Source: Bacteroidaceae bacterium (lineage in GTDB: Bacteria > Spirochaetota > Spirochaetia > Sphaerochaetales > Sphaerochaetaceae). Taken from it: a stretch of DNA of 64,000 nt. How positions within the stretch are numbered: position 1 is the stretch's first letter; each line of letters begins with the position of its first letter. The position numbers and the translations under genes were made by a program. The notes under the pieces are model-generated. The model did not search any database. It worked only from the letters and a program-made list of their open reading frames with translations, and was not told the DNA's origin. Positions 10,917 through 50,890 of this stretch are shown here, piece by piece. The stretch covers positions 11,811 to 75,810 of the forward strand of contig CAVBWZ010000012.1 of assembly GCA_963599445.1 (NCBI GenBank). Direction: 5' to 3'.

Positions 10917-10998
10917 TTCTTTGGGTGGCAGCCGTTGTCGGTGCGCTCAAGCCGTGCATCCCAGCACTGTCATTCGCTTCCTTCTAGGCTGCCGCACC

Positions 10999-11202
10999 AA
11001 ATAACGTCGCAGTTTTCTTGGTCTTTGAGTCGTCTTCATCGTCACTTCGCACGGGCTGTACAAAAAGTACTATCTCGTGCTTGTATCCTTGAATACGGCT
11101 CAAATACCCTCGAAACGATTTCTCCAAATTACGTCGCAGGAGTTTATACTCTCTACTGCATCGCAAACGCACAGGCTGTACAGCTAGTACTATCCTGTGC
11201 GT
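10999..11202. repeat. tandem pair of about 100-130 bp noncoding repeats (family E), each with a GCACRGGCTGTAC-N5-GTACTATC-YGTGC hairpin
   Basis: AAATAACGTCGCAG...CGCACGGGCTGTACAAAAAGTACTATCTCGTGC repeats as AAATTACGTCGCAG...CGCACAGGCTGTACAGCTAGTACTATCCTGTGC. A related copy lies at 47391-47500. Confidence 0.7.
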
Positions 11203-11207
11203 TTTTT

Positions 11208-11623
11208 GGTTCTTCACGGAAAGTTCGGGGATTGGGAGATGAGAATCAAAAGAGATCATCCAGCCTTAGGCTGTCGGGGCTCTTTGGGCGTTTGGGGCTT
11301 ATGGGGCCGTTAGGGCTGTTGAAGACTGTTGAAACGATCGAGGGCGCTTGTGGCTCATGTGGCGGTTGAGACTCTTGTGGCTGTTATGGCGCTTGCAGAC
11401 GGTTGAATCGTGTTTGAAGTGGAGCGCTTTGGAGCGTGCCTGAGTGTACCTGATGGCTCCTGACCGCACCTGAGTGCCCCGCGTTCCTAAATTTAGACCG
11501 TTTGGGAAAGGCTGGAGCGTCCAGATAGGCTAGAGAGACTAGAGAGGCTAGAAAGGCCAGATCGTCCAGATGTACAATGACGCCGTCCATCGTTTACAAT
11601 CTCCGACTTTTCCGTGAAGAGCC
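11208..11623 (+). mobile_element. MITE-like nonautonomous element, copy A (416 bp, terminal inverted repeats)
   Basis: Starts GGTTCTTCACGGAAAGTTCGGGG and ends CCGACTTTTCCGTGAAGAGCC, an inverted match. About 93% identical to copy B over the first 135 bp or so. No credible ORF. Confidence 0.7.
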
Positions 11624-11702
11624 AATAAAAGCGGCGGATTCCGTTAAAAGGGCATCTGCCGCATCCTGAATATGCCTTTCAAAAGTGAATGAACATTATT
11701 CA

Positions 11703-11730
11703 TTGACATTTCAAAAAATGGTGTTATAAT
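11703..11730 (+). promoter_or_regulatory. sigma-70-type promoter of tetR (island)
   Basis: TTGACA, 16 nt spacer, TGTTATAAT (extended -10). Overlaps the inverted repeat AATGAA-N5-TTCATT at 11688-11704. Confidence 0.6.
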
Positions 11731-11755
11731 TGAGGACAGAAAGGGGGTTTGGACG

Positions 11756-12316
11756 ATGCGGATTACGAAGGAGCCGGAAGTGCGCAAGCAGGAGATCATA
11801 GATACCGCCCTCAGATTGTTCGGGGAAAAGGGATACGAAAAGACCTCAATTACAGATATAGCGAAAGCCATCGGTGTGGCGCAGGGGTTATGCTACCGCT
11901 ACTTCCCATCCAAGGAAGTGCTGTTTGACAGTGCAATCGAACAGTATGCCGACGTTCTGGTAGAGCAGATGGTCAGCTCTAAAGGGGATGAAAATCAGGC
12001 ATTGCGGCAGATTATAGAAAATATGCCTTCTGCAATGGAAGACAGGGACACAAAATATTACCGTGTTTTTCACGGAGCAGAAAATAAAAAATTCCACGAT
12101 CAGCTTACCCTCAAGGTGTGCGAGAAGCTGATTCCTTTTGTGGAGAAGATGTTGCAGAAGGCGAAGCAAAAGGGCGAGATCAAGTTTGACGATTTACAGA
12201 CCGTTGCGGCGTTCTGTGTCTACGGGCAGCTCGGCATTCTGCTGGCGGACGATTTGACGCAGGGAGAAAAGTCCAAAAGGATTCGAGAATTTCTCATTTT
12301 CGCACTTCACCTTTGA
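11756..12316 (+). CDS. TetR/AcrR family transcriptional regulator
   Basis: N-terminal HTH: RKQEIIDTALRLFGEKGYEKTSITDIAKAIGVAQGLCYRYFPSKE. Confidence 0.9.
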   Translation: MRITKEPEVRKQEIIDTALRLFGEKGYEKTSITDIAKAIGVAQGLCYRYFPSKEVLFDSAIEQYADVLVEQMVSSKGDENQALRQIIENMPSAMEDRDTKYYRVFHGAENKKFHDQLTLKVCEKLIPFVEKMLQKAKQKGEIKFDDLQTVAAFCVYGQLGILLADDLTQGEKSKRIREFLIFALHL

Positions 12317-12406
12317 AATAATCCCTCACTTTGTTGTGGGGGATTTTTAAGGCAAAATTATTGAATGTTATTCATTCATTTATTTATCAAGGAAAGGATG
12401 TTACTG

Positions 12407-13729
12407 ATGCAAACAAAACTTGATTTTATCGGCGGAAATACAAAGCGCTGCCTATTGGCGATGGCACTTCCGATGATTGCCGCCATGTTCCTCAACATGA
12501 TGTATAACCTCGTGGACAGCCTGTGGATTGGAAACCTGTTGGGCGAGACAGCCTATGCCGCACTCACGAACTCCACTCCCATCATTCTGATTCTGACCTC
12601 GGTTGCAATGGGTGCGACGAATGGAGTTTCCATTTTGCTTTCTCAGGCGATTGGAGCAGGGGACAAGGAGAAAACGGAAAGCCTGATTACTACATCGTTC
12701 TGCGCGGCCGTTGCATTTTCGTTGCTCGCGACGGTTTTGCTGGAGGTGTTTCTGCCGGGAATTTTGAAGGCACTGAATACCCCGGCTGAAACATATGACA
12801 TGGCATACAGCTATCTGTCCATCTATGTTCTGGGGTATTTGGCCGTCTACCTCTACCTTTACTTCACCGCCGTTCTGCGCAGTTTTGGCAATTCCATGTT
12901 TCAGGCTGTGGCTATGCTGGTATCCACGATTCTGAATGCAATTCTTGACCCGCTTTTCATTCACTTAATCGGCTTCCACGGAGCTGCGATTGCAACGCTT
13001 CTCTCTCAGCTGATTTGCTTGCTTTTCATGCTGGTTTATCTGAGAAAGAAAAATTTATTTGCGTTCAAGCTCTCTGCGTTTGACAGGTACGAAGTCTTGC
13101 CTCTCGTTCAAAAAGCGGTTCCGTCCGTGATTCAGCAGAGCATCCCCGCCATCAGCACCACATTTCTCACTGCGCTCGTCAGTACATACAGCGTCACGGC
13201 GATTGCGGCCTACGGTGTGACCGGCAAGTTGGAAACCATTCTGTTCTACCCTGCAATGGCGCTGAATATGGTCTTGACCACGATTGTCGGGCAATGCTCC
13301 GGCGGCAAGCGGTATGACCGAGCGAAGGACTATTTGAAATGCGCACTGGGCTACGGCTGCGGCCTGCTTGTGATCCTCTCCACTTTAGTGGTCGGATTCT
13401 CCAAACAGCTTTCCAGTTTGTTCGTCAAGAGCGACGGTGTGGCGGCCATTGTGGGAACGTATTTCCTAATCGTCAGTATTGGGTACATTCTGAATACAGT
13501 CACAAACTGCTATCTTGGAACGATTAACGGTATGGGAAAGCCCTCGAAAAGCATGTTCCTGATGATCTTCTATTACATCATTGTGCGGATGCCTTTGGCT
13601 TATCTGCTTTCCCATCTTGGTTTTGGCCTGAATGGGATTTGGACTGCGGTACTGGCCAGTCATGTGGTGGCAAGTTTTGCAGCAGCAACAACGGGGACGA
13701 TGGTTGTAAAAAGAGGTGAAAAATCATAA
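12407..13729 (+). CDS. MATE family efflux transporter
   Basis: LLAMALPMIAAMFLNMMYNLVDSLWIGNLLGETAYAALT is a typical MATE N-terminus. 12-TM profile. ATG 12407 follows AAGGAAAGGA; the ORF opens at 12365. Confidence 0.9.
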   Translation: MQTKLDFIGGNTKRCLLAMALPMIAAMFLNMMYNLVDSLWIGNLLGETAYAALTNSTPIILILTSVAMGATNGVSILLSQAIGAGDKEKTESLITTSFCAAVAFSLLATVLLEVFLPGILKALNTPAETYDMAYSYLSIYVLGYLAVYLYLYFTAVLRSFGNSMFQAVAMLVSTILNAILDPLFIHLIGFHGAAIATLLSQLICLLFMLVYLRKKNLFAFKLSAFDRYEVLPLVQKAVPSVIQQSIPAISTTFLTALVSTYSVTAIAAYGVTGKLETILFYPAMALNMVLTTIVGQCSGGKRYDRAKDYLKCALGYGCGLLVILSTLVVGFSKQLSSLFVKSDGVAAIVGTYFLIVSIGYILNTVTNCYLGTINGMGKPSKSMFLMIFYYIIVRMPLAYLLSHLGFGLNGIWTAVLASHVVASFAAATTGTMVVKRGEKS

Positions 13730-13748
13730 GGGATGCTTCTCTTTGCTA

Positions 13749-13777
13749 TTGACAGATACGCCTTTCATAAGTATAAC
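13749..13777 (+). promoter_or_regulatory. sigma-70-type promoter
   Basis: TTGACA, 17 nt spacer, TATAAC upstream of the second tetR. Confidence 0.5.
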
Positions 13778-13841
13778 GTCTAATATGCATTAGATGATAT
13801 GTATTGAACAATATGTTTTAGAGAATGAAAGGATGCAAACT

Positions 13842-14465
13842 ATGGCTCCAAAGAATAAGTTTACGAAGGAAGAAATGATAGAAGCTGCGATGCGCGTTGT
13901 GCAGACCAAAGGTATCGATGGCCTGACCGCAAAGACGATGGCAGACGAACTCGGAACCTCCACCCAGCCTGTTTTTACCGCTTTTGGCTCAATGGATACC
14001 GTCAAGCAGGAAGTCTATGCTGCAGCAGTGCGTGTGTATGACAGCTATGTGGATGCTGGGCTGAAGGAAAAGATTCCGTTCTTTGGTGTCGGGATGCAGT
14101 ATATCCGGTTTGCACGGGAAGAACCGGAGCTTTATCGGTTCCTCTTTTTGACGCGGACGCAAGATCAGGAATATAGCGTCATGAAAGCCATGCGGCATTT
14201 GCAGGAGTTTGTTCGGCCAATGCTGGTGAACATTTACCATGTTACTGACGAAGAAGCAGACCTTTATTTCCGTGATCTGTGGTTCGTCGTGCATAGTCTG
14301 TCCACTCTGATAGTGACCGGCGATTGCCCATACTCCGACTGGGAGATTGGGCAAATTCTAACGGGCTTCAGCATCAGCATCTGCAAATCCATCAAGGAAA
14401 TTCCCGGCTTTGCGGCAGGCACCTTTGACCGTGATGCTGCGTTTCGAGCGCTGAGTTCTAAATGA
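13842..14465 (+). CDS. TetR/AcrR family transcriptional regulator
   Basis: FTKEEMIEAAMRVVQTKGIDGLTAKTMADELGTSTQPVF is a TetR HTH. ATG 13842 lies 8 nt after AAAGGA. Confidence 0.85.
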   Translation: MAPKNKFTKEEMIEAAMRVVQTKGIDGLTAKTMADELGTSTQPVFTAFGSMDTVKQEVYAAAVRVYDSYVDAGLKEKIPFFGVGMQYIRFAREEPELYRFLFLTRTQDQEYSVMKAMRHLQEFVRPMLVNIYHVTDEEADLYFRDLWFVVHSLSTLIVTGDCPYSDWEIGQILTGFSISICKSIKEIPGFAAGTFDRDAAFRALSSK

Positions 14466-14481
14466 ACCGAGGTGATTTCAA

Positions 14482-14670
14482 GTGGCAGACAAAACGAATA
14501 CCAAAATTGATTGGCTTTGCTGCCCAAGATGCGGCGGCAAAACAAGAACGCAGATATTGCCGCACACGGTATTGGAGGAATATCCGCTATTCTGTCCGAA
14601 GTGCAAATACACCTGCGTAATCCGTTTCAAGGACGGAAGAATTGAAAAAATCAAAATGCCAGACGCTTAG
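14482..14670 (+). CDS. cysteine-rich KTR domain protein
   Basis: 62 aa with CPRCGGKTR...CPKCKY, matching the small 'cysteine-rich KTR' proteins of Firmicutes mobile elements. GTG start follows GAGGTGA. Confidence 0.7.
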   Translation: MADKTNTKIDWLCCPRCGGKTRTQILPHTVLEEYPLFCPKCKYTCVIRFKDGRIEKIKMPDA

Positions 14671-14716
14671 ACGCAGTGCAATCCGAGATGATTGGTTTGT
14701 GCTGCGTTTTTATTTT
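14671..14716 (+). terminator. rho-independent terminator
   Basis: 11-bp stem ACGCAGUGCAA / UUGUGCUGCGU (two G-U pairs) followed by TTTTTATTTT, directly after the stop at 14670. Confidence 0.55.
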
Positions 14717-14732
14717 GTAAGGAGGCATATGG

Positions 14733-14861
14733 ATGAAAGATGTGTTTCTTGCATATGTCGATTTCGCGGTTGAAGTTGCAAAGAAGTTAAACCTGTTCGC
14801 CAGTGAATCTGATCTTCAGGAAACCATCAATTTCTGGAAACATTGTCAAAGAGTGCAGTAG
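14733..14861 (+). CDS. hypothetical 42-aa ORF (MKDVFLAYVDFAVEVAKKLNLF...)
   Basis: ATG lies 8 nt after AGGAGG. Shorter than the smallest ORF in the track (60 aa). No recognisable family. Confidence 0.2.
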   Translation: MKDVFLAYVDFAVEVAKKLNLFASESDLQETINFWKHCQRVQ

Positions 14862-14903
14862 AGAGGGAACCTACGCAAAAACGTGAATTGAAATGCTTAA
14901 TGC

Positions 14904-15182
14904 TTGAAGCGAGGAGGGCTGAAGTATCCGTCTATGCAAAAAGGAAATAAAAATGGCCGAAAACTTGAGCCGTGGAGAATAGTCGTAGGCACATTGTCCA
15001 TAGCGTTCATCATATTTCTATGGGTAAAAAATGATATTGCATCTACTTTGGTTGCAATGCCGAAGGAACAGGCCATACCGCTTGCTGTTACAACCATTGC
15101 AGTTTCTGTGGTTAAAGTTGCTGTAATTGCAGGTGTGCTTCTTTTGGCTAAATGGGTTATCGGAAAAATCAAAAGCAAATGA
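14904..15182 (+). CDS. small membrane protein, two TM segments
   Basis: 92-aa ORF with two hydrophobic helices (IVVGTLSIAFIIFLW and TTIAVSVVKVAVIAGVLLLA). No family recognised. Confidence 0.35.
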   Translation: MKRGGLKYPSMQKGNKNGRKLEPWRIVVGTLSIAFIIFLWVKNDIASTLVAMPKEQAIPLAVTTIAVSVVKVAVIAGVLLLAKWVIGKIKSK

Positions 15183-15211
15183 GCGCGAGAATAAGCACAG
15201 AAGGAGAGTAT

Positions 15212-16192
15212 ATGAAGCAGGAGAAAATTGCAGCAATGGAAACCGCTATTGATGTGGACTACAGCAATATTGCTGGTCTGGTCGTGCTGAAAGATGGCCA
15301 AACGGTTTATGAAAACTATTTTGGGGGCTGCACAGCAGAAAGTCGCATCCATGTTTTCTCGGTGACAAAGAGCATTGTTTCCATCCTGTTCGGAATCGTG
15401 CTGGACAAAGGCTATCTTGACAGCATTGACCGAAAGGTATTGGAGTTTTACCCGGAATACGTTATCAAACGTGGTGAAAAGACAATTCAGCATGTCACAA
15501 TTCGGGATATGCTCACCATGACAGCACCCTATAAATATAAGTCCACTCCCTACACAAAGTATTTCACAAGCCTGGATTGGGCGAAATTTTCTCTTGATGT
15601 ATTAGGTGGAAAGGGACGGATTGGTGTGTTCCGCTACACGCCGCTGATCGGGCCGGACATTCTGACCGGCATTCTTGTAAAAGTAACTGGGCAATCCGTT
15701 CTCGACTTTGCAAGAGAGAACTTGTTTTCTCCGCTGGGTATTGCTTTGAAGCAGAATATCACGTTCCACAGCAAAGAAGAACAGATGGCGTTTTATAAAG
15801 CGACTGATAGGAGCGTTTGGGTTGCTGACCCAAACGGAGTGAATGCGGGCGGTTGGGGGCTCACTCTTTCTCCGATGGATATGGCGAAAATCGGTGAGCT
15901 TATCCGGAATAGCGGTGTCTGTGATGGAAGGCGCATTGTATCTGAAGAATGGGTGCGTGAGAGTACATCTGAGCAAAGTCGGTGGATGGAGCGGGATTTG
16001 CCCTATGGATATTTGTGGTGGATTCTTGAGCAGGAGCACGGATGTGCTGCGATGGGTGACGGTGGAAATATCATCTATGTCAGCCAAGATAAGAATATGG
16101 TTGTTGCGATTGCCTCCCGCTTTCAGCAAAGAGCGAAAGACAGAATCGAATTCATTAAGGAGTATGTCGAGCCAATATTTGCCAATATTTGA
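15212..16192 (+). CDS. serine hydrolase, beta-lactamase/transpeptidase-like family
   Basis: S-x-x-K motif (FSVTKS) near the N-terminus; GGWGL and YGYLWW segments are typical of class C-like/PBP4* hydrolases. ATG follows AAGGAGAG. Confidence 0.8.
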   Translation: MKQEKIAAMETAIDVDYSNIAGLVVLKDGQTVYENYFGGCTAESRIHVFSVTKSIVSILFGIVLDKGYLDSIDRKVLEFYPEYVIKRGEKTIQHVTIRDMLTMTAPYKYKSTPYTKYFTSLDWAKFSLDVLGGKGRIGVFRYTPLIGPDILTGILVKVTGQSVLDFARENLFSPLGIALKQNITFHSKEEQMAFYKATDRSVWVADPNGVNAGGWGLTLSPMDMAKIGELIRNSGVCDGRRIVSEEWVRESTSEQSRWMERDLPYGYLWWILEQEHGCAAMGDGGNIIYVSQDKNMVVAIASRFQQRAKDRIEFIKEYVEPIFANI

Positions 16193-16231
16193 TTGAAACG
16201 CCATTGGCGCGGAAATGGAGAATGAAAAACA

Positions 16232-16774
16232 ATGAAGATTGAAACAGAGCGCCTTTTTCTGAGGGAAATGGCACCAGAGGATTTTAATGCGCTGTACGCC
16301 GTGCTTGCTGATTCTGACATCATGCAGCATTACCCTTACACCTTTGACGAGGCTCGCGTCAAAAACTGGATCAGCAAAAACACCGAGCGTTACCATGTGT
16401 TCGGCTTCGGCCTGTGGGCCGTCTGTTTGAAACCTACGGGTGAGATGATCGGTGACTGCGGGCTAACCATGCAGAATATAGGCGGTACGATTCTGCCAGA
16501 GATCGGCTATCATATCGCAAAGGCACACCAGCGCCAAGGCTTTGCAACAGAAGCGGCGCAGGCTGTTCGTGACTGGACATTTACGCATACGACTTTAGGC
16601 ATGGTGTATTCCTATATGAAAAAGGCAAACACTCCGTCCTCCGCCACCGCCCGTGCAAACGGTATGACGTTGCTAAATGAGTTTACCGGTGACGAGGGCG
16701 AGCAGACCGTTGTATATGGCATCAGCCGCAAAGAATGGCAGAATCAGGAAATATCAAAGGAGATTGTCAAATAA
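16232..16774 (+). CDS. GNAT family N-acetyltransferase (RimJ/RimL-like)
   Basis: IETERLFLREM start and HQRQGFATEAAQAV acetyl-CoA binding segment. Confidence 0.85.
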   Translation: MKIETERLFLREMAPEDFNALYAVLADSDIMQHYPYTFDEARVKNWISKNTERYHVFGFGLWAVCLKPTGEMIGDCGLTMQNIGGTILPEIGYHIAKAHQRQGFATEAAQAVRDWTFTHTTLGMVYSYMKKANTPSSATARANGMTLLNEFTGDEGEQTVVYGISRKEWQNQEISKEIVK

Positions 16775-17027
16775 AAACCTTAAATGTTATCCAAAAGTTG
16801 TCAAAAATCGGAAAAATCCCCAGCAGGATTATGTTCTTCTTCTGCATCGTTGGTACGGTATATGCGGTGATGTCAGCAGGCATGCACATGAATGCGTTTG
16901 ATTCCTATGACGTATCGGGTGTGGCAATCCCCAGACACCATATATGATTCTATGATTTTGTACCGGCAACAACGCCGACGGTTATTTTGCCTGCTGAATA
17001 AGGCGATTGTGAGAGGAGGGATTGAAT

Positions 17028-17693
17028 ATGAGCGTCTTGCAGACAATCAATCTCAAAAAATACTACGGCACGAAGCCAAACATTGTCCGTGCGCTGGACG
17101 GCGTGAATTTCTCCGTGGACGATGGCGAGTTCGTTGCGGTCATTGGAGCCTCCGGCAGCGGCAAATCCACGCTTCTCAATATGATAGGCGGTCTGGATAC
17201 CCCCACCTCTGGCCGCGTGATTGTGCGCGGACAGGATTTGGCAGGGATGGATGACGAAGCGTTGACGCTGTTTCGGCGGCGTAATATTGGCTTTGTCTTT
17301 CAGAATTACAATCTCGTTCCAATGCTGAGCGTACAGGAAAACATTGTTCTGCCTGTGGAGCTGGACGGGCATACCGCAGAACGCAGTTTCCTGGAGGACA
17401 TCGTTTCCATGCTGGGGCTGAAAGACCGGCTGTATGCCATGCCGAATACACTTTCAGGAGGTCAGCAGCAGCGCGTCGCCATTGCCCGCGCCCTGATTAC
17501 CAAACCGGCTATCATTCTAGCCGATGAGCCTACCGGAAGTCTGGACAGCCAGACCAGCACAGATGTGCTGGAGCTGCTTCGGCGCAGTAGCCGCCAGTTT
17601 CACCAGACCATCGTGATGATTACCCACAATGACTCCATCACCCGCCTTGCGGATAGAATCGTATGCATTGGTGACGGCAGGATTGTGGGATGA
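17028..17693 (+). CDS. ABC transporter ATP-binding protein (MacB/LolD-like)
   Basis: Walker [10 protein letters not shown], signature LSGGQQQR, Walker [12 protein letters not shown] 17028 lies 7 nt after GAGGAGGG. Confidence 0.9.
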
Positions 17694-19726
17694 GGGGCGG
17701 TGCTATGAAGAAGAAGGCTATTACCCCCATCGTAAAGACGGTTGCCAAACGGGATATGCGTCCTGACAGTATCAAAAATGTATTTTCCCTGCTGACGGTC
17801 TGCCTTGTGACGGCGCTTCTGCTGTCGCTGGCACTCTATGAAAGCGGCTATGAAACAGCAAAGGACAGAGCCGCCGCAGGACAACCGCAGGTCGTTTTCT
17901 GCGACCTCTCCGTACAGCAGGCCGCAGCCCTGCAAGCGGATGAAGATATTACTTCCATCACTCTGAACGAATCAGAGAATGGCTTGGATGCGTCAGTTAC
18001 GCTTTTCGGTGCGGAGAAAATGACGCAGACCGGATTTTCGGATTATATTGCTGAGATCAGTGCAAAGTACGGCATCTGTCACCCTGTAAAGAACACCATG
18101 TTTCTGGACAGCCTATCGGACGGCAACCTGTTCAGTTCCGAACGGCTGCTCCTTGTGGGTGTGGCGTTGTTTGTCCTGCTGGTCAGCGCACTGGTAATCT
18201 ACAATATCTTCTACTTGTCCATAACGATGCAGATTCGACAGTTTGGGCAGTTCCGCACCATCGGAATGACCGCAAAACAGATCAGCGGCATCATCCGTAC
18301 AGAGCGGAAGCTGCTGTGCAGACGGGCAATTCCGGTTGGTCTGGTGATTGGAACATTCATTGCCTACTTGTTGCAGCCAAAAGGCTTTGCATGGAAACCT
18401 GTGGTTCTGTGGGGCCTCGTGATTGCTCTGGTGGTTGCGTTGGTAGTGCAGCTTGCGCTCAATCAGCCCACCAAAATCGCCAGCAGTGTTATACCAGCAC
18501 GTTCTGCAAGGTTTTTTGAAGGTGCATCTGAAAATCGCATACCGCGAAGTAAAAAACGGAAGCTGTCTGCGTGGGGGCTTGCGCGAATCCATGTGACAGG
18601 CAGCCGCAAAAAGGTTATGGTGTCTGTGCTTTCTCTGGCTCTCAGCGGACTGCTGTTCACGCTGGCTGCAACCTATACGACCTCCGTAGATGCGAAGACC
18701 ATTGTAGAGCGGGAGCTTTACCAATACGGCCAATTTATCGTGGAAGAATCAGGACTGTACACGCAATCCGCACCGGAGCTGGACAATCTGACCTCTCGGA
18801 TCACGAAGCTCCCTGGTGTGCAAGGCATCGAAAAAGTCACCGAAACCAGCATCAACTGGTCTACGGGTGGTAGCAGCGATGCTGATCAGCTTTCCATCAT
18901 CGAAGCGGACGATATGCAGATGATCCAGCCATTTGTCAGAAGCGGCGAGGCCGATTATCAGCAGTTGGTAGCGGAAAACCAAGTCCTTGCCGTGGACGGC
19001 GCAGAGGGTGTTTCCATTGGTAGCTCCGTTGCGCTGATCTTTGAAGATGGCATAACGCAGCAATATACTGTTGGGGCAATACTGGACGATGGCATTTACC
19101 ATGATACTGCGGTATATGGTGGCTGGTTTCTGCTTCCGCGAGAGCTGCTGCCCGAAACGCCGGGGATGTTTGCAGTTTCTACAAAGTTGATTGTCGATGC
19201 GGACAATGCCGAATTAAGCAATGTCGAAGCTGATTTGAGGGATTTGCTTAAAACCTCCAATCAGGCGACTTTGACCACCAAGCAGGAGGCTATCATTGAA
19301 AAGGATGCCGCCATTCGCCAAGTTAGCCTGTCCGTTGTGGGGATTACGCTGCTGTTTCTCTGTTTCAGCATCCTGATTTTTGCCAACACGATTCTGATGA
19401 ACATTATTGTCCGAAAAAATGAGTACGCCATGCTGCAATCCATCGGCATGACCTACCGACAGGTTCGGGCAATGCAGATTATGGAGAGTATTCTGGAAGC
19501 GGGGGTTGGATTTGTTATTACACTGGTGCTGGGCATTATCTTCGGAATCGGGATGATTCAGGTTTTGACGCGCATGGGGATGTTCTATCTGGCCTATACA
19601 TTCCCGTCTGCCATGTTCGCCCTGTACTGCGCCATCACGTTGATTGTCATGTTCGCCATTACATTCATTGCGTTCAATTCCATGCAGAAAGCGCCGCTGG
19701 TCGAGCGTATGCGGACAGTAGAGTGA
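17690..19726 (+). CDS. ABC transporter permease, FtsX/MacB family (BceB-like size)
   Basis: 678 aa, multi-TM, with two FtsX-type 4-helix modules and a large extracytoplasmic loop. Start overlaps the ATPase stop. Confidence 0.8.
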   Translation: MRGGAMKKKAITPIVKTVAKRDMRPDSIKNVFSLLTVCLVTALLLSLALYESGYETAKDRAAAGQPQVVFCDLSVQQAAALQADEDITSITLNESENGLDASVTLFGAEKMTQTGFSDYIAEISAKYGICHPVKNTMFLDSLSDGNLFSSERLLLVGVALFVLLVSALVIYNIFYLSITMQIRQFGQFRTIGMTAKQISGIIRTERKLLCRRAIPVGLVIGTFIAYLLQPKGFAWKPVVLWGLVIALVVALVVQLALNQPTKIASSVIPARSARFFEGASENRIPRSKKRKLSAWGLARIHVTGSRKKVMVSVLSLALSGLLFTLAATYTTSVDAKTIVERELYQYGQFIVEESGLYTQSAPELDNLTSRITKLPGVQGIEKVTETSINWSTGGSSDADQLSIIEADDMQMIQPFVRSGEADYQQLVAENQVLAVDGAEGVSIGSSVALIFEDGITQQYTVGAILDDGIYHDTAVYGGWFLLPRELLPETPGMFAVSTKLIVDADNAELSNVEADLRDLLKTSNQATLTTKQEAIIEKDAAIRQVSLSVVGITLLFLCFSILIFANTILMNIIVRKNEYAMLQSIGMTYRQVRAMQIMESILEAGVGFVITLVLGIIFGIGMIQVLTRMGMFYLAYTFPSAMFALYCAITLIVMFAITFIAFNSMQKAPLVERMRTVE

Positions 19727-19915
19727 GCCTGCACCACCTAAGGAAATGGAACATGAACCGAAAAATTGATCGAGCAAAACTATTTACATAGGAGATTCAT
19801 CAAATGAGTATTCATAATCCAAAACGAAAGCGCAGCGTTACTTGTTCCATGTTGCTGGACGGCCAGGACAGCGATTCTGTTGCCCTGGAAGTCTCAAAGA
19901 TATTTCCATATTTTT

Positions 19916-20304
19916 GGTTCTTCACGGAAAGTTCGGGGATTGGGAGATGGGAATCGAAGGAGATCATCCGGCCTTGGGCTGTCGGGGCTCTCTGGGCGTT
20001 TGGGGCCTATGGGGCCGTTAGGGCTGTTGAAGGCTGTTTAAACAATAGAGGTATCTGAGGCTTTTAAGATGGTTGCGGCGCTTGTGGCGGATGAGACGCC
20101 TAAGGCGCTTCAAGACGGTTGAAGTAGAGCGCTTCAGAGCGTGCCTGAATGTACCTGATAGTACCTGAGCGAACCCGAGTGTTCCGCATTTCCAAATCCA
20201 GACTGTTCTAGAGTGGCACGAGCGGCTAGAACGGCTGGAACGTCCAGTTGAACAATGGAGGCACTGCGGCTTGTTTCAAATCCCCGACTTTTCCGTGAAG
20301 AGCC
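19916..20304 (+). mobile_element. MITE-like nonautonomous element, copy B (389 bp)
   Basis: Same termini as copy A (GGTTCTTCACGGAAAGTTCGGGG ... CCCCGACTTTTCCGTGAAGAGCC) and same orientation. Confidence 0.7.
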
Positions 20305-20323
20305 TAAATTCTCCTGTTCCCTG

Positions 20324-21904
20324 CTATGTGTATTGATGTGGGTTTTGAGCTTCGTTTACCTTTCTTCTCATTGATTCCATATCGTAGGTGGGTGGGATTG
20401 ATTTCCTTCTTATGAGCTTTGCAGTGATGAGTGTGGTCGTTTCCAAGAAGACTACCGTTCCTGTCATGACGAAGTATGCTGGCCATCCGGCTTGTGGCAG
20501 GTTCGCAAAAGCTGAAAAGAGAGTGTAGAAAAGGCTATAGATGGTGTCACTTGCCCAAAGCAGCATTGGAAGTCTGCCAAGAGCCAGGACGAGAAGACCT
20601 GTTGTCATTGATGCTGCCGCCAGAAGTCCTGCAAGGGGTGATATGAGTATCGCAATGGGATTCCATGAGCCTGTCGTGGCAATCTGGATTGGAGCGCAGA
20701 AGAGCAGAACAATGACCGAGGGCCAGAAGGGCGAGAGAGTTCGCTTTCCTGTGAAGACTGCGATTGGAGAATAGGAGAGATCCTGGAGGAATACTATTGC
20801 CGTAACCGCTGCATAGCCATAGCAGTTGCCAAGGTCTACCATGGAGAAGGGAAAGAGCAGTGCTTGTATGAAGAACGCCGCACATAACCTGCGTTTTGCA
20901 GATTTCATATCCAACGCACCGTCAAACATATCACTGAACATTCCAAAGCAGAACATCATGGATGCTCTTAGAAGCGATGGTCTTGGACCTGCTGTGAATA
21001 CAAACGCTCCAATAAGAAGGAATGACATGAACCTTGCAGCCATTTTGATTCTGTTTTTTCCAATTCCTTCAAGCAGCTTGCAGATTCCTGCAAGTATTCC
21101 AAGGTGCATTCCTGACAATGCCAGAACGTGGGAGCAGCCGCACTTTTGTGCAAGTTCCTTCAAAGGAAAGCCGTAGTCTTCGGACCTTCCCAATAGAAGC
21201 ATGGCGCTCAGGAGGTCGGAATCCTGAGGTGAAGCTCTCGTCCCCAAAAAGGCTTCGCTTCCAAAGAGGCGTCTTTCCAACACTTCTATCAGCGATTCCC
21301 TTATGTCGTTGATTCTGTTTCGTTTGAGAACCTGCAGTTCTTCGAATATGAAAAGCTCATTGCTGAAACGTCCTGTGAGGCGTACCTTTACGCCGTATGA
21401 GACGATGGACTTGGAGGAAGGAGGCTTTCCAATTGCCGTTGCAAGGCCGCTTGCCGTGGCTCTGTAGCTGTGTATGGAGCCGCAGGTGCTGACTTTGAGC
21501 TTTATCATATAGTTGCCTGACGTGGAGAACGATGAGTCCTGCACCAAGGTGCCTTCCAGAATGCAGACCGATTCTTTGGGGAGTGAAGTCCTTAGCTGCG
21601 CTTCCCTTGCTATGATTGATACCATGAACGCTGCGACTGCTATGAATATGATGCAGCGCAGCATCGACATGAAGTTGATGTTCTTTCTGTTTGTAGAGTT
21701 GCCTCTAAACAAAAGGGTGCCGGACGGGGCTAGGGAAACGGCTGCAGCGCCAAGGACCGCTGCCGCAAGCCCCATACCCCGTCCGGCGATGGGAAAGTAT
21801 GATGAGACGATGAGAAACAGAAAGGAGTGGGACAGAAGAAAGGTTTGGGGTAAGGTGTTTCTCACGCTCATACAAAATGAATACGTGGAACTTGCAGCTT
21901 CCAT
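20324..21904 (-). CDS. comEC: ComEC/Rec2 family competence protein (no C-terminal metallo-beta-lactamase domain)
   Basis: Polytopic membrane protein with an OB-like insert and the SGMHLGIL competence-domain motif. At 526 aa it is shorter than full-length ComEC. Confidence 0.7.
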   Translation of the reverse strand: MEAASSTYSFCMSVRNTLPQTFLLSHSFLFLIVSSYFPIAGRGMGLAAAVLGAAAVSLAPSGTLLFRGNSTNRKNINFMSMLRCIIFIAVAAFMVSIIAREAQLRTSLPKESVCILEGTLVQDSSFSTSGNYMIKLKVSTCGSIHSYRATASGLATAIGKPPSSKSIVSYGVKVRLTGRFSNELFIFEELQVLKRNRINDIRESLIEVLERRLFGSEAFLGTRASPQDSDLLSAMLLLGRSEDYGFPLKELAQKCGCSHVLALSGMHLGILAGICKLLEGIGKNRIKMAARFMSFLLIGAFVFTAGPRPSLLRASMMFCFGMFSDMFDGALDMKSAKRRLCAAFFIQALLFPFSMVDLGNCYGYAAVTAIVFLQDLSYSPIAVFTGKRTLSPFWPSVIVLLFCAPIQIATTGSWNPIAILISPLAGLLAAASMTTGLLVLALGRLPMLLWASDTIYSLFYTLFSAFANLPQAGWPAYFVMTGTVVFLETTTLITAKLIRRKSIPPTYDMESMRRKVNEAQNPHQYT

Positions 21905-32228: not shown

Positions 32229-32812
32229 AGAAAGGAAGGCTTCCAAAGATTCTCTTTGTTCTCATGGCCGTTGTGTGCCTGGCCGTTCTATGTTCGTGCA
32301 CTTCGTCCAACAGAGACTGCTTCTATGCATACTTCGAGGACACTGCATTCATTTTGGTGTACGACAGGAACCAAGACACCCTCTATGAAGTGATACTTCC
32401 CCTTGAACCCATACTCCTTTGGGGAAAGGATGCAGGATTGGACTCCATCCCCGTTGCCATGAGGAACTTTGTGGGCCTCAAGGAAAGCGGCTTCCTCGTT
32501 GGGACAAGCATCTCTCTTCAGACCCTGCGCGATATGCTGGATGTCATGGGTACCGATATGGAAGGAGAACCTAGCGGAGCCAAGAGGCTTGCAACGTTTG
32601 CGGACAACGTTGCAGTATTGAGCAAAAAACCGTTGTCAGATAATATGAACAGGCTTTGCGGACAGGACATGTCCAAAGTCCTGGACGTACTTGAAAACAA
32701 AAGTCCAAATGCCGTCTACTATGATGCAGGAGGGCTTTTCGACAACGAAGATCTGAACTTCTCCCAGCGGTACTTCACTCAGTGGCTGGGCCAGGTTCTT
32801 GGAGGATATTGA
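32219..32812 (+). CDS. hypothetical lipoprotein
   Basis: Signal peptide with lipobox LAVLCSC. ORF opens at 32162. TTG 32219 follows GGAGG; start uncertain. No family recognised. Confidence 0.45.
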   Translation: MFIEKGRLPKILFVLMAVVCLAVLCSCTSSNRDCFYAYFEDTAFILVYDRNQDTLYEVILPLEPILLWGKDAGLDSIPVAMRNFVGLKESGFLVGTSISLQTLRDMLDVMGTDMEGEPSGAKRLATFADNVAVLSKKPLSDNMNRLCGQDMSKVLDVLENKSPNAVYYDAGGLFDNEDLNFSQRYFTQWLGQVLGGY

Positions 32813-42482: not shown

Positions 42483-44023
42483 AAAAGGCCTTCTTCAAGT
42501 ACTTCATAAGCATATTCTCCATAACCGTCGTGACGATCCTCCTTCAAAGCATCATCCTTGTGGTGCAGTATTCGCACAGCCAGACCAAGTGGAGGACCAG
42601 CGTCTACAACGATTTCGTGGATGCCTTGGAGGAGAGCATAGAAAGCGGACGCTTCAAGGACTTTGGCCTTGGAAGCCTGAGGCTTATAATGTCGTCCTTG
42701 GATGACAACAGGGTATCGGGCTACGTGGTCAGAGACACCAAGGGCAGTACAATGTTCACCTTTGGAAAGACATCAGAGGGCAGGATGCTTGCAGCCATAC
42801 TTCCTGCCGACCAGGAGCCATCGGCCTCATCTGCATCAGATGGAAGGCTCATGTCCACGGATTCTCACAACACGGTGAGGCTCAACGTCGTGTTCTCGGA
42901 CGATTCCCTGGAAAGCGTGGAGGGCTCGGATGCCTTTGTCCTGTCCAGCGATGCAGACAGCTTCATGGTCGTGGAACGAAAATCCCCCTACGGCAAGTAC
43001 CAGACGTATCTTGTTCTCCCAAATGCAATAAATGCCGATGACATAGTGGGTTCCATAACATTGGCCTTCGAAGGGGAGGATCTTTTCATAATAGACCTTT
43101 TGACATACTCCCCAAGGACCTACGCCTACTCCAAGGATGTCTTCGACTCCTGTCTTAGAGGTGTGGTGGTGTCGATTCCTGTGTGTCTTGTAATAGCATT
43201 GATCGCCGCATGGGTCATAAGCTCCCGTAACATAAGGTTCATAGACAACGTGCGCAATGCATTGAAGAAACTGGCAAGGGGAGAGACCAATGTCAAGCTT
43301 GAGCGCAACCACAACAGCGAGCTTGATGAGATCTCCATTGCCGTAGAGGACCTGGACGAGGAGCTTCAGAAGAACGCCATGAGCCGTAGGGCTTGGCTCA
43401 GCAGTATATCCCATGACCTCAACACACCGGCAAGTGCAATCAAGATGATGGTGGACGGCATGGGTGACGGAGTGTTCCCTCTTGATGAAACATCAATTGA
43501 GGAGCTTCGCAGGGAATCCGATACCCTCAACGAGCGTATAGGCAAGGTCATAGACTTCTCCTCCATGCAGGCGGACTCTACGCCCGTCATAGACGAGGTT
43601 CCCGTGGCGGTGCTTGAGAACTGCATAGTGAACAGTCTTCCTTTCCTGAAGGATGGCTCCAGACATGTAACGTTTGAGCATGTTTCAGACAATGTGAAAT
43701 GCGATGTGGTACTCATGACACGTGCCTGCATGGAGCTTATAAAGAACGCATTCGAATATGGAGAGGTCGATGGTCCTGTCGTCCTCCGCGCAGGAGAAGA
43801 CGCCCGTGGTTGCTTCGTATGCGTAGAGAACAAGGGCTCTATTCCAAAGGACATCGAGGACGGAAGCTTCCTTGAACCTTGGATAAGGGGTGACTGGTCC
43901 AGAACCAGAGGTGGTTCAGGCCTTGGCCTTCCAATAGTATGCACCGTAGCCAGACTCCACGGCGGGGCTGTGGCTTTGGAGAATGTGGAAGGCGGTATGG
44001 TGAGGGCTACGATTCGTTGGTAG
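42479..44023 (+). CDS. sensor histidine kinase
   Basis: H-box SISHDLNTPASAI, N-box and G2 GGSGLGLPIV. Two TM segments flank a sensor domain of about 190 aa. Start overlaps the regulator stop. Confidence 0.9.
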   Translation: MKKAFFKYFISIFSITVVTILLQSIILVVQYSHSQTKWRTSVYNDFVDALEESIESGRFKDFGLGSLRLIMSSLDDNRVSGYVVRDTKGSTMFTFGKTSEGRMLAAILPADQEPSASSASDGRLMSTDSHNTVRLNVVFSDDSLESVEGSDAFVLSSDADSFMVVERKSPYGKYQTYLVLPNAINADDIVGSITLAFEGEDLFIIDLLTYSPRTYAYSKDVFDSCLRGVVVSIPVCLVIALIAAWVISSRNIRFIDNVRNALKKLARGETNVKLERNHNSELDEISIAVEDLDEELQKNAMSRRAWLSSISHDLNTPASAIKMMVDGMGDGVFPLDETSIEELRRESDTLNERIGKVIDFSSMQADSTPVIDEVPVAVLENCIVNSLPFLKDGSRHVTFEHVSDNVKCDVVLMTRACMELIKNAFEYGEVDGPVVLRAGEDARGCFVCVENKGSIPKDIEDGSFLEPWIRGDWSRTRGGSGLGLPIVCTVARLHGGAVALENVEGGMVRATIRW

Positions 44024-47868: not shown

Positions 47869-48267
47869 GGCTCTTCACGTTTTCCTGGGGGATGAGCCTC
47901 TGACGGATGGGCAGGAGATGCCTCATGGAAGCTATTAGTCGGCCGTCTCGGCATCCGCTTCATGGCCGAAATGACATGAAAACATCGAAAAGGCATCTTT
48001 CTAGGCAAAACAATGCACACAAACAGCGGAAACAAGGCCTTTCATGTCATCATGCGTCGCCTGTACATCTGGACGCTCCAGAGCGCTCTACTTAAACCGT
48101 CTTGAAGCGTCATGACCGACACAAGAGCCTCAACCATCTCAAGGGCCACAGACATCCTCTATTGTTTCAACGGTCTTCAACGGCCCAGTGAGCCCCAACA
48201 GCCCCAAAGCTGGATGCTCTCTTTCGATTTCCACCCCAATACCCCCCCCAGCTTTCCGTGAAGAGCC
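47869..48267 (-). mobile_element. MITE-like element, copy C (399 bp), flanked by an 8-bp direct duplication
   Basis: GGCTCTTCACG ... CTTTCCGTGAAGAGCC termini. The right half is the reverse complement of the left half of copies A/B. TTTTTATT occurs at 47861-47868 and again at 48268-48275. Confidence 0.75.
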
Positions 48268-50277: not shown

Positions 50278-50874
50278 ATGGAAGAAAAGAAGAACATCGG
50301 CAAGCTGCTTTTGGGTGAGTGGAACACGAAGACGATTGTTGCCGTCGCTGTTGGTGCAGCTCTGTTCGGAGTCCTTATGTGCTACGGTGGAATCCCTGTA
50401 TTCACGAATACGAGCCTTACGACCGCAATGCTTGTGCCTGTCATCGTAGGCGGTCTCTTTGGACCTCTTCCTGCATTCGTCGCAGCAGGCGTGGGCAACG
50501 TGATCGCTGACCTCATCGGCGGTTGGGGAATGTGGTTCGACTGGTCCGTTGGAAACGCCGTCATGGCTTTCTGCGTTGGACTTCTTCCAGTCTACGGTGC
50601 AAACATCAAGGAAGGCGTGTTCGAAGTCAAGCACATGATCATCTATGCAATATGCTGCATTCTTGGAAACGTGATTTCGTTTGGAGTCATAACACCAATC
50701 TTCACGGTTCTCTTCTATGGTGGAGACCTTGAGGTTACGTTCCTCCAGGCTTTCGCCGCAACCGTTGGAAACTTCGCAGTTCTGGTCGTGGTTGGCATAC
50801 CTGTACTCAAGGTCCTTGCAAACCGCTACAAGTCAAGGTCCAACCTGGCTCAGGAGCACAGTGACAACTACTGA
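50278..50874 (+). CDS. ECF transporter S (substrate-capture) component, specificity unknown
   Basis: 198 aa with about 6 TM. Gly-rich helices are typical of S components. ATG 50278 follows TTGGAGG. Followed by ECF A and T genes. Confidence 0.7.
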   Translation: MEEKKNIGKLLLGEWNTKTIVAVAVGAALFGVLMCYGGIPVFTNTSLTTAMLVPVIVGGLFGPLPAFVAAGVGNVIADLIGGWGMWFDWSVGNAVMAFCVGLLPVYGANIKEGVFEVKHMIIYAICCILGNVISFGVITPIFTVLFYGGDLEVTFLQAFAATVGNFAVLVVVGIPVLKVLANRYKSRSNLAQEHSDNY

Positions 50875-50890
50875 TCCTGTTCTGTGGATT

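Follow-up and report, generated by a model that had tools for sequence, protein, structure and literature searches.

A Clostridia-type gene island bounded by ISL3-derived miniature elements between pta and comEC in a Sphaerochaetaceae genome

How does a block of foreign genes come to lie between two host genes, bracketed by two copies of a short repeat and carrying no recombinase of its own? This question is raised by positions 11208 to 20304 of a 64,000-nt stretch (the window) of contig CAVBWZ010000012.1, which belongs to a Sphaerochaetaceae metagenome-assembled genome (MAG; here G000, 2.2 Mb in 27 contigs, 96% complete). The host is a gut spirochaete; its assignment to the Sphaerochaetaceae follows from ribosomal protein S7, which falls into one cluster (identity of 90% or more) with proteins named Sphaerochaeta sp., Sphaerochaetaceae bacterium, and Spirochaetales bacterium. 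In this genome, the space between the pta and comEC genes is taken up by an ~8.2-kb piece (positions 11686 to 19915) of a Clostridia (Lachnospiraceae-type) accessory array, whose horizontal acquisition is well supported, and by two miniature inverted-repeat transposable elements (MITEs), copies A and B, that form its borders. On balance, it is probable that the foreign block entered after the split of this lineage from its nearest sampled relatives and that the MITE-bounded junctions resulted from events driven by an ISL3 transposase, combined with deletion or recombination.

The bordering elements and the site that they occupy

A preliminary description of this DNA, made without database searches, had placed two same-orientation repeats with terminal inverted repeats at the edges of the island. 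Both repeats are real, and their coordinates and orientation stand as follows.

11208..11623, plus strand: copy A, ISL3-derived MITE (inverted repeat I1); its left end is the host/insert junction
19916..20304, plus strand: copy B, ISL3-derived MITE (inverted repeat I4, alignment with A); its right end is the insert/host junction

A and B bracket the cargo as two copies of one element with intact outer ends. They are short (389 to 416 nt), lack a transposase open reading frame (ORF), and end in imperfect terminal inverted repeats of ~30 nt that start with GGYTCTTCACGGAAA; the window has 3 occurrences of the 26-nt terminus, and 100 shuffles have none. The two copies are identical over the first 39 nt, 92% identical across the first 141 nt, ~75% identical beyond that left part, and about 80 to 85% identical overall. 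The left end of A agrees at 26 of 27 positions with the left terminal repeat of an ISL3 element on contig C9 of the same genome. This element (C9:43100-44530) is the cognate insertion sequence, with termini that match those of the MITE family, and its 465-aa product contains Zn-ribbon, HTH, and DDE_Tnp_ISL3 domains and matches the profiles PF01610 (197 bits) and NF033550 (289 bits; the ISL3 equivalog cut-off is 180). Further ISL3 transposase genes are found at C16:56032-57058 and at contig ends. The internal ~350 nt of the MITEs are unrelated to the insertion sequence and are built of degenerate short repeats. These profile and terminus matches bear out the earlier view that the flanking elements are non-autonomous. 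A matching ISL3 transposase is available in trans: the gene is present elsewhere in G000, and its mobilizing activity is predicted.

A and B are ISL3-derived MITEs native to the host clade. Family members are dispersed over G000 as ~44 pieces and are of comparable abundance (27 to 35 hits each) in G010 and G006, the two nearest sampled sister species; in the other 24 of the 26 genus species used for comparison, the family hits lie at most within the first ~57 nt. Three other two-ended copies carry perfect 8-bp target duplications (CTTTGTTA, TTTTTATT, and AACATTTC). One of these three is the third family member of the window.

47869..48267, minus strand: copy C, with a perfect TTTTTATT duplication

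The site of copy C is unoccupied in both G006 and G010, which retain a single TTTTTATT; this precise empty site in the sister species means that the family transposed in this lineage after the species split. A 118-nt mini-element of G000 (C19:8606-8723) consists of just two ISL3 terminal repeats and carries a perfect AACATTTC duplication.

The insertion site of the island was compared with 12 related loci, those of G006 and G010 and those on ten related-strain metagenome contigs around pta (L069 to L078), which come from a G010-like species with ~89% nucleotide identity; no conspecific strains were found, all ten contigs of the pta cluster being of the G010-like species. The gene order in the related loci is pta, a DUF1016/YhcG gene, and comEC, with the middle gene intact in most, decayed in several, and replaced in one. 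G010 has a 404-aa DUF1016/YhcG PD-(D/E)XK gene on the minus strand, G006 has an internally deleted 146-nt remnant of it, and in the ten metagenome contigs the slot holds an intact gene, a frameshifted gene, or (in one) an IS200-like gene in its place. Homology to the window stops at 11203-11211 and resumes at 20305/20306 in 11 of the 12 loci; for G006 and G010, it reaches up to 11208/11211 and starts again from 20305/20306. The loss of host synteny falls, to the nucleotide, on the outer ends of A and B. G000 has a 30% paralog of the DUF1016 gene but no ortholog. Given the synteny of the relatives and the missing ortholog, A, the cargo, and B together constitute the difference from the relatives and replace a resident gene. 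The empty site that the preliminary description had proposed to look for is thus seen in part: A, B, and the island are missing from all 12 related loci, but the site holds the DUF1016/YhcG gene, its remnant, or a replacement. The replaced stretch runs from just past the terminator T-run of pta to the DUF1016 start codon, with the following host features on its two sides.

10917..11207, plus strand: host pta 3' region, with two ~120-nt tandem units (direct repeat D7), a terminator hairpin in each, then a T-run abutting A
20305..20323, minus strand: retained ribosome-binding region of the lost DUF1016/YhcG gene, which aligns before the ATG in G006 and G010 and lies just downstream of the comEC stop codon

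The pta-comEC slot is a hot spot of decay and replacement. In L073, it is filled by an IS200-like Y1 transposase gene (L073:11339-12067) and homology resumes at 20358; in L071 and L072, the DUF1016 gene is split. The tandem units at the 3' end of pta (11048-11200 in the window and ~11000-11430 in L069 to L078) are ~95 to 120 nt long and number one to three, depending on the strain. The comEC gene (20324-21904) and pta lie on opposite strands in G000, G006, and G010 and share a strand in those more distant genus members that have both genes on one contig (e.g., G012, G016, and G001), which suggests a single-gene inversion of comEC in the G000/G006/G010 clade.

The cargo and its foreign origin

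The region from 11686 to 19840 is almost wholly covered, at 83 to 91% nucleotide identity, by nine Clostridia-type metagenome contigs (hereafter donor-type contigs). L061 contains TetR, MATE, TetR, and KTR genes in the same order as the island; L065 and L066 contain the small protein and the hydrolase (14906-16232 aligns to both at 87% nucleotide identity); and L052 and L051 contain the ABC-FtsX pair, with 91% nucleotide identity of ATPase and permease to L052. The homology to donor-type contigs begins at 11686 in three separate contexts. In these contigs, the modules occur in varying combinations beside genes for a large serine recombinase, PcfJ, YodL, DUF3560, and VanZ, a gene content reminiscent of cargo regions in integrative elements of Clostridia. 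At the protein level, the best homologs of the MATE transporter show 93% amino acid identity (one, at 79%, is named Candidatus Blautia faecavium), those of the hydrolase reach 90% identity (Coprococcus sp. is the name given to one at 73%), and those of the permease are 91%, 85%, and 83% identical and come from contigs on which VanZ and a large serine recombinase are encoded as well. Few homologs of island proteins bear names; those that do are assigned to Candidatus Blautia faecavium, Coprococcus sp., and Lachnospiraceae bacterium. The GNAT gene has 68 to 77% nucleotide matches in four sampled Clostridia.

Among sampled genomes, island DNA is matched at E ≤ 1e-30 in 14 of 399 Clostridia versus 1 of 400 Spirochaetota other than the host (Fisher P = 5e-4, with related genomes not being independent). 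The statement that KTR proteins are typical of Firmicutes mobile elements agrees with their enrichment in Clostridia, where 30 of 301 genomes have hits above the cut-off, as compared with 1 of 300 other Spirochaetota. The island is unmatched in the 26 other genus species, except for stretches of the ABC ATPase gene of at most ~120 nt, and was not found in ten further related-strain contigs. As for near-identical donor DNA, the plasmid database yielded only a 46-nt ABC motif, a scan of GTDB genomes with the permease yielded only a 32% relative from an Anaerovoracaceae MAG, and viral contigs yielded none.

The compositional signal lies in codon choice and tetranucleotides, and the island codon bias reported earlier is confirmed by quantitative comparison with the genome. 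Relative to the codon background (1633 long ORFs from the whole of G000), the island prefers CTG for Leu (0.44 vs 0.16) and CGG for Arg (0.28 vs 0.04) and avoids ATA for Ile (0.09 vs 0.40) and AGG for Arg (0.12 vs 0.35). When each gene is scored by the fit of its synonymous choices to genome usage, all seven long consecutive island genes rank between 49 and 219 of 1633 (z from -1.15 to -2.37); the scores of the neighbors are +1.21 for pta and -0.45 for comEC. The tetranucleotide distance of the island falls within the top 3.1% of the 8-kb windows of the genome. The GC content at third codon positions does not differ (0.50-0.65 vs 0.58 ± 0.09), and GC content was rejected as a discriminator for this reason. 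Foreign codons, absence from relatives, and Clostridia-type closest homologs uphold the earlier proposal that the island is Firmicutes-like and was acquired horizontally.

Nine intact genes and two gene remnants lie between A and B. Gene calls by Pfam and NCBIfam profiles recovered the cargo families that had been named from the translations alone, as listed here with the other features of the island.

11624..11685, no strand: spacer of 62 nt, with a minus-strand terminator-like hairpin
11703..11730, plus strand: sigma-70-type promoter before TetR-MATE, TTGACA-N16-TGnTATAAT, 12 of 12 consensus positions, with the extended -10 TG
11756..12316, plus strand: TetR-family regulator (PF00440, E = 3.9e-18), syntenic in L060 to L063
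12407..13729, plus strand: MATE efflux transporter (PF01554, TIGR00797)
13794..14465, plus strand: second TetR-family regulator (PF13305, PF00440), gene order as in L061
14482..14670, plus strand: Cys_rich_KTR small protein (PF14205, E = 1.4e-24), the sole copy in G000
14904..15182, plus strand: small membrane protein, homologous to the product of an 87-aa gene before the hydrolase in L065 and L066
15212..16192, plus strand: serine hydrolase with a beta-lactamase fold (PF00144)
16232..16774, plus strand: GNAT acetyltransferase (PF13302, E = 4.7e-30)
16749..16853, plus strand: 5' remnant of a 183-aa gene, 74 to 82% nucleotide identity to the gene start in L051, L052, L060, and L065 to L067
17028..17693, plus strand: ABC transporter ATPase, MacB/LolD/FtsE-like (PF00005, NCBIfam matches)
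17690..19726, plus strand: FtsX-family permease of 678 aa with two FtsX stretches (PF02687)
19804..19915, plus strand: lipoprotein gene remnant, internally deleted, its end cut by copy B

The small membrane protein (14904-15182) has no Pfam match. Consistent with the earlier remark that the island carries no recombinase, Pfam detects no transposase, integrase, relaxase, or recombinase domain in any of the products, and the hallmarks of integrative and conjugative elements (ICEs) and integrative and mobilizable elements (IMEs) are therefore missing. Judging by family membership, the cargo genes probably provide regulated efflux and drug-modification functions. Near-consensus promoters had also been reported in the island; the site at 11703-11730 is indeed perfect, but promoter-like sites as a class are not enriched (10 vs 11.0 in shuffles). 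The 62-nt spacer (11624-11685) has no match in G000 or five relatives, a host origin was rejected on this ground, and it is probably donor DNA.

In comparison with the donor-type contigs, the island bears the scars of three deletions. The 183-aa gene that is intact in donor-type arrays is reduced by an internal deletion to its 5' stub at 16749-16853; the Lactamase_B region that follows FtsX is lost; and the lipoprotein gene, in which the N-terminus MSIHN.KRK and a later segment still match the 207-aa product of L065 and its homolog in L052, has lost an internal part and is truncated by B at 19915.

The accessory array of Clostridia seems to be highly shuffled. In donor-type contigs L052, L060, L061, L065, and L066, short genes and modules (KTR, a 48-aa ORF, Flavodoxin_2, CDP-OH_P_transf, 183-aa and 89-aa ORFs, VanZ, ABC/FtsX, and Lactamase_B) recur in differing orders and subsets. 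The only other sampled genome of the phylum with island-like DNA, a weak case, is G652 from another Spirochaetota family, which has four KTR genes on small contigs (C52, C85, C138, and C153), one of them adjoining a hydrolase homolog. Either a transfer took place in parallel, or contigs from Firmicutes were binned with this MAG.

How the bounded structure may have arisen

The outer ends of the MITEs abut host DNA, their inner ends abut foreign DNA, and B cuts a donor gene, all of which points to the elements themselves as the makers of the junctions; we infer that ISL3-transposase-driven events, not a site-specific recombinase, were at work. No one-step model fits the flanks, which read CGTTTTTT-A-AATAAAAG and ATATTTTT-B-TAAATTCT. 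An 8-bp target duplication is absent from A as well as from B, and the outer flanks of the A-cargo-B unit (CGTTTTTT vs TAAATTCT) differ, so that there is no duplication at the level of the unit either. The inner flanks of A and B are unequal, unlike those expected from a replicative cointegrate into a foreign circle, and the outer and inner flanks are not swapped, unlike those left by Campbell integration at a resident copy. An origin of A and B as sister duplicates of a replicative cointegrate is ruled out by their ~80% identity, other copies being equally close, and an inspection of all 30 termini in the genome revealed no target duplications swapped with other element ends.

Two routes fit these observations and are the least demanding. 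Along the first, a MITE-bounded composite would have inserted near the start of the DUF1016 gene, after which an element-adjacent deletion, proceeding leftwards to the T-run of pta, would have removed the resident gene together with one copy of the target duplication. Transposase-mediated element-adjacent deletions end exactly at the element terminus. Along the second, two MITEs would have inserted independently of each other into a larger piece of foreign DNA, and adjacent deletions, or recombination between the copies, would then have removed the foreign backbone and the resident gene.

Several points weigh against such a history. Since A, B, and the entire unit all lack the 8-bp duplication that is usual in the family, at least one further, unobserved rearrangement must be assumed. 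A and B are only ~80% identical, and neither is clearly the closest relative of the other. The unit was found at no second location in the 26 genus genomes or in exact-junction scans of JGI metagenomes. A genome-wide permutation revealed no association of the MITE family with atypical-codon genes (P from 0.11 to 0.59), which makes the island a local event and not the product of a demonstrated general mechanism. The sole full-length assembled transposase gene, the open frame on C9, belongs to an element without the last ~13 nt of its right terminal repeat. Finally, the joins of pta to A and of B to comEC rest on one MAG assembly, an independent Logan contig ending 130 nt after pta. The Logan contigs indicate SRR13434657 as the source run. 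One more of them leads from inside A into TetR-MATE, matching 11445-12771 at 100%, and another covers 14258-17489.

The preliminary description had offered two simpler histories, neither of which finds support in this form. One was capture in the manner of a composite transposon; in its single-step version, A, the cargo, and B would have moved as a unit, with the left end of A and the right end of B as its termini and no further event. Bracketing of the cargo by same-family elements with intact outer termini, a transposase gene available in trans, and transposition of the family after the species split would all suit such a move; the outer flanks CGTTTTTT and TAAATTCT, which are not an 8-bp duplication, and the relatives, which hold a 1.2-kb gene or its 146-nt remnant instead of a clean empty target, make it improbable; the unit replaces the DUF1016/YhcG gene. 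The other was integration by recombination at a resident repeat; in its Campbell-type version, a foreign circle with one element would have recombined with a resident copy next to pta. This would leave direct repeats, in agreement with the direct orientation of A and B, and these do look chimeric, with left 141 nt 92% identical and the rest ~75%. Nevertheless, this history is unlikely: a resident copy is missing from all 12 related loci, the expected correspondence of flanks (A left with B right, A right with B left) is absent, and the elements are specific to the host clade, with no MITE sequence found in the nine donor-type contigs.

It is also unlikely that the MITEs are bystanders, that is, that the block was integrated by illegitimate or homology-facilitated recombination and two MITEs landed later at its edges by chance. 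Family members often form close pairs, the 2.2-Mb genome having ~44 pieces, and the lack of a genome-wide link between the family and atypical genes would fit this scenario; still, both host/foreign transitions fall exactly at element termini, and later insertions would show 8-bp duplications with the original junction outside, neither of which is seen. An assembly artefact, in which the contig was misjoined through element sequence and the foreign DNA belongs elsewhere or to a separate one-MITE circle, carries little probability. The first 39 nt are the same in A and B, and contigs from the same Logan run break before A, but beyond those 39 nt the two copies differ by ~20% from each other and from every other copy and are effectively unique, which makes a misjoin between A and B unlikely. 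Moreover, the Logan contig passes from inside A into TetR-MATE without a mismatch, the alternative resolution yields no target duplications either, and, in any event, host-specific elements adjoin the foreign DNA at either end. An ancestral block that was lost in the relatives is barely credible: its presence here is all that speaks for it, set against foreign codon choice, the lack of matches in 26 genus species and 400 genomes of the phylum (one weak case excepted), and the different gene, or its remnant, that the relatives keep at the site.

A second bracketed structure is found in G000 at C16:50596-57058 (L083:3597-10059). Synteny with G006 and G010 stops there at a MITE (50596-50888), which is followed by two atypical-codon genes for large Lcl_C-domain proteins (z of -2.75 and -2.29) and then by an ISL3 element that reaches almost to the contig end. 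Such a MITE-cargo-ISL3 arrangement at a synteny break hints at recurrence. Pairs of host ISL3-derived MITEs, or a MITE and an ISL3 element, with a transposase acting in trans, could conceivably be a recurrent vehicle that fixes and then trims Clostridia DNA in Sphaerochaetaceae; we regard this as a long shot, which, if true, would give the unusually heavy flow of genes from Clostridia to Sphaerochaeta a concrete mechanistic basis. Another contig of G000, C17 (52 kb, GC content of 46.1%; e.g., 32291-32605 and 42881-43459), combines a low GC content and a long run of atypical-codon genes with the only large serine recombinase of the genome, ISL3/MITE fragments, and a TIR-domain protein, and may represent an integrated foreign element.

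Comparison with known systems

Members of the ISL3 family, as described in ISfinder, have termini that start with GGYTCTT, produce 8-bp AT-rich target duplications, and encode transposases with Zn-ribbon, HTH, and DDE_Tnp_ISL3 domains. The MITE termini likewise start with GGYTCTT, the family makes 8-bp AT-rich duplications, and the transposase domains agree; unlike ISL3 elements, A and B individually have no duplication, and their internal ~350 nt are unrelated. The cargo resembles that of Clostridia ICEs with a large serine recombinase in its modules (TetR-MATE-TetR-KTR, hydrolase, VanZ, and ABC/FtsX). Unlike those ICEs, the island has no backbone of recombinase, relaxase, and conjugation genes, and it shows three deletion scars.

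Extensive transfer from Clostridiales to Sphaerochaeta has been reported, with >40% of the genes acquired, mostly from clostridia (Caro-Quintero et al. 2012, PMC3372971). The island shares with that case the donor group, the recipient group, and the direction. The transfers described there are mostly of old metabolic genes, with no vehicle named and no junctions shown, whereas the island is a single lineage-specific block of the efflux/resistance type with readable junctions.

The closest parallels are MITE-bracketed units, such as the TIME-COMP units of Pseudomonas, which were caught transposing (PMC4133298), the 439-bp MITEs that flank class 1 integrons in Acinetobacter, and MITE-297, which flanks a 76-kb region (reviewed in PMC6382973). 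As in those units, two non-autonomous copies with terminal inverted repeats bracket genes without a role in transposition, the copies can share their orientation, and mobilization needs a transposase in trans. Those units are flanked by a target duplication and are of Tn3 or insertion sequence parentage; here, there is no duplication, a resident gene has been replaced, the parent is ISL3, and any movement of the unit is hypothetical. The locus thus shows neither the flanking duplication nor the clean empty site that define a composite, and the description that suits it best is that of a horizontally acquired island with ISL3-derived MITEs as its borders, a kind of MITE-bracketed cargo that is already known. 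It reveals no new kind of system; as a case of gene capture across phyla, it is clear but fairly ordinary. What it offers is a lineage-specific transfer in which all four junctions are readable, an insert-free site survives in sister species, and the boundaries are marked by transposable elements of the host and not by a site-specific recombinase. The locus is a useful worked example of foreign cargo that was stripped of its mobile backbone and fixed in a distant host, and a candidate system for the question of whether pairs of ISL3-derived MITEs mobilize cargo.

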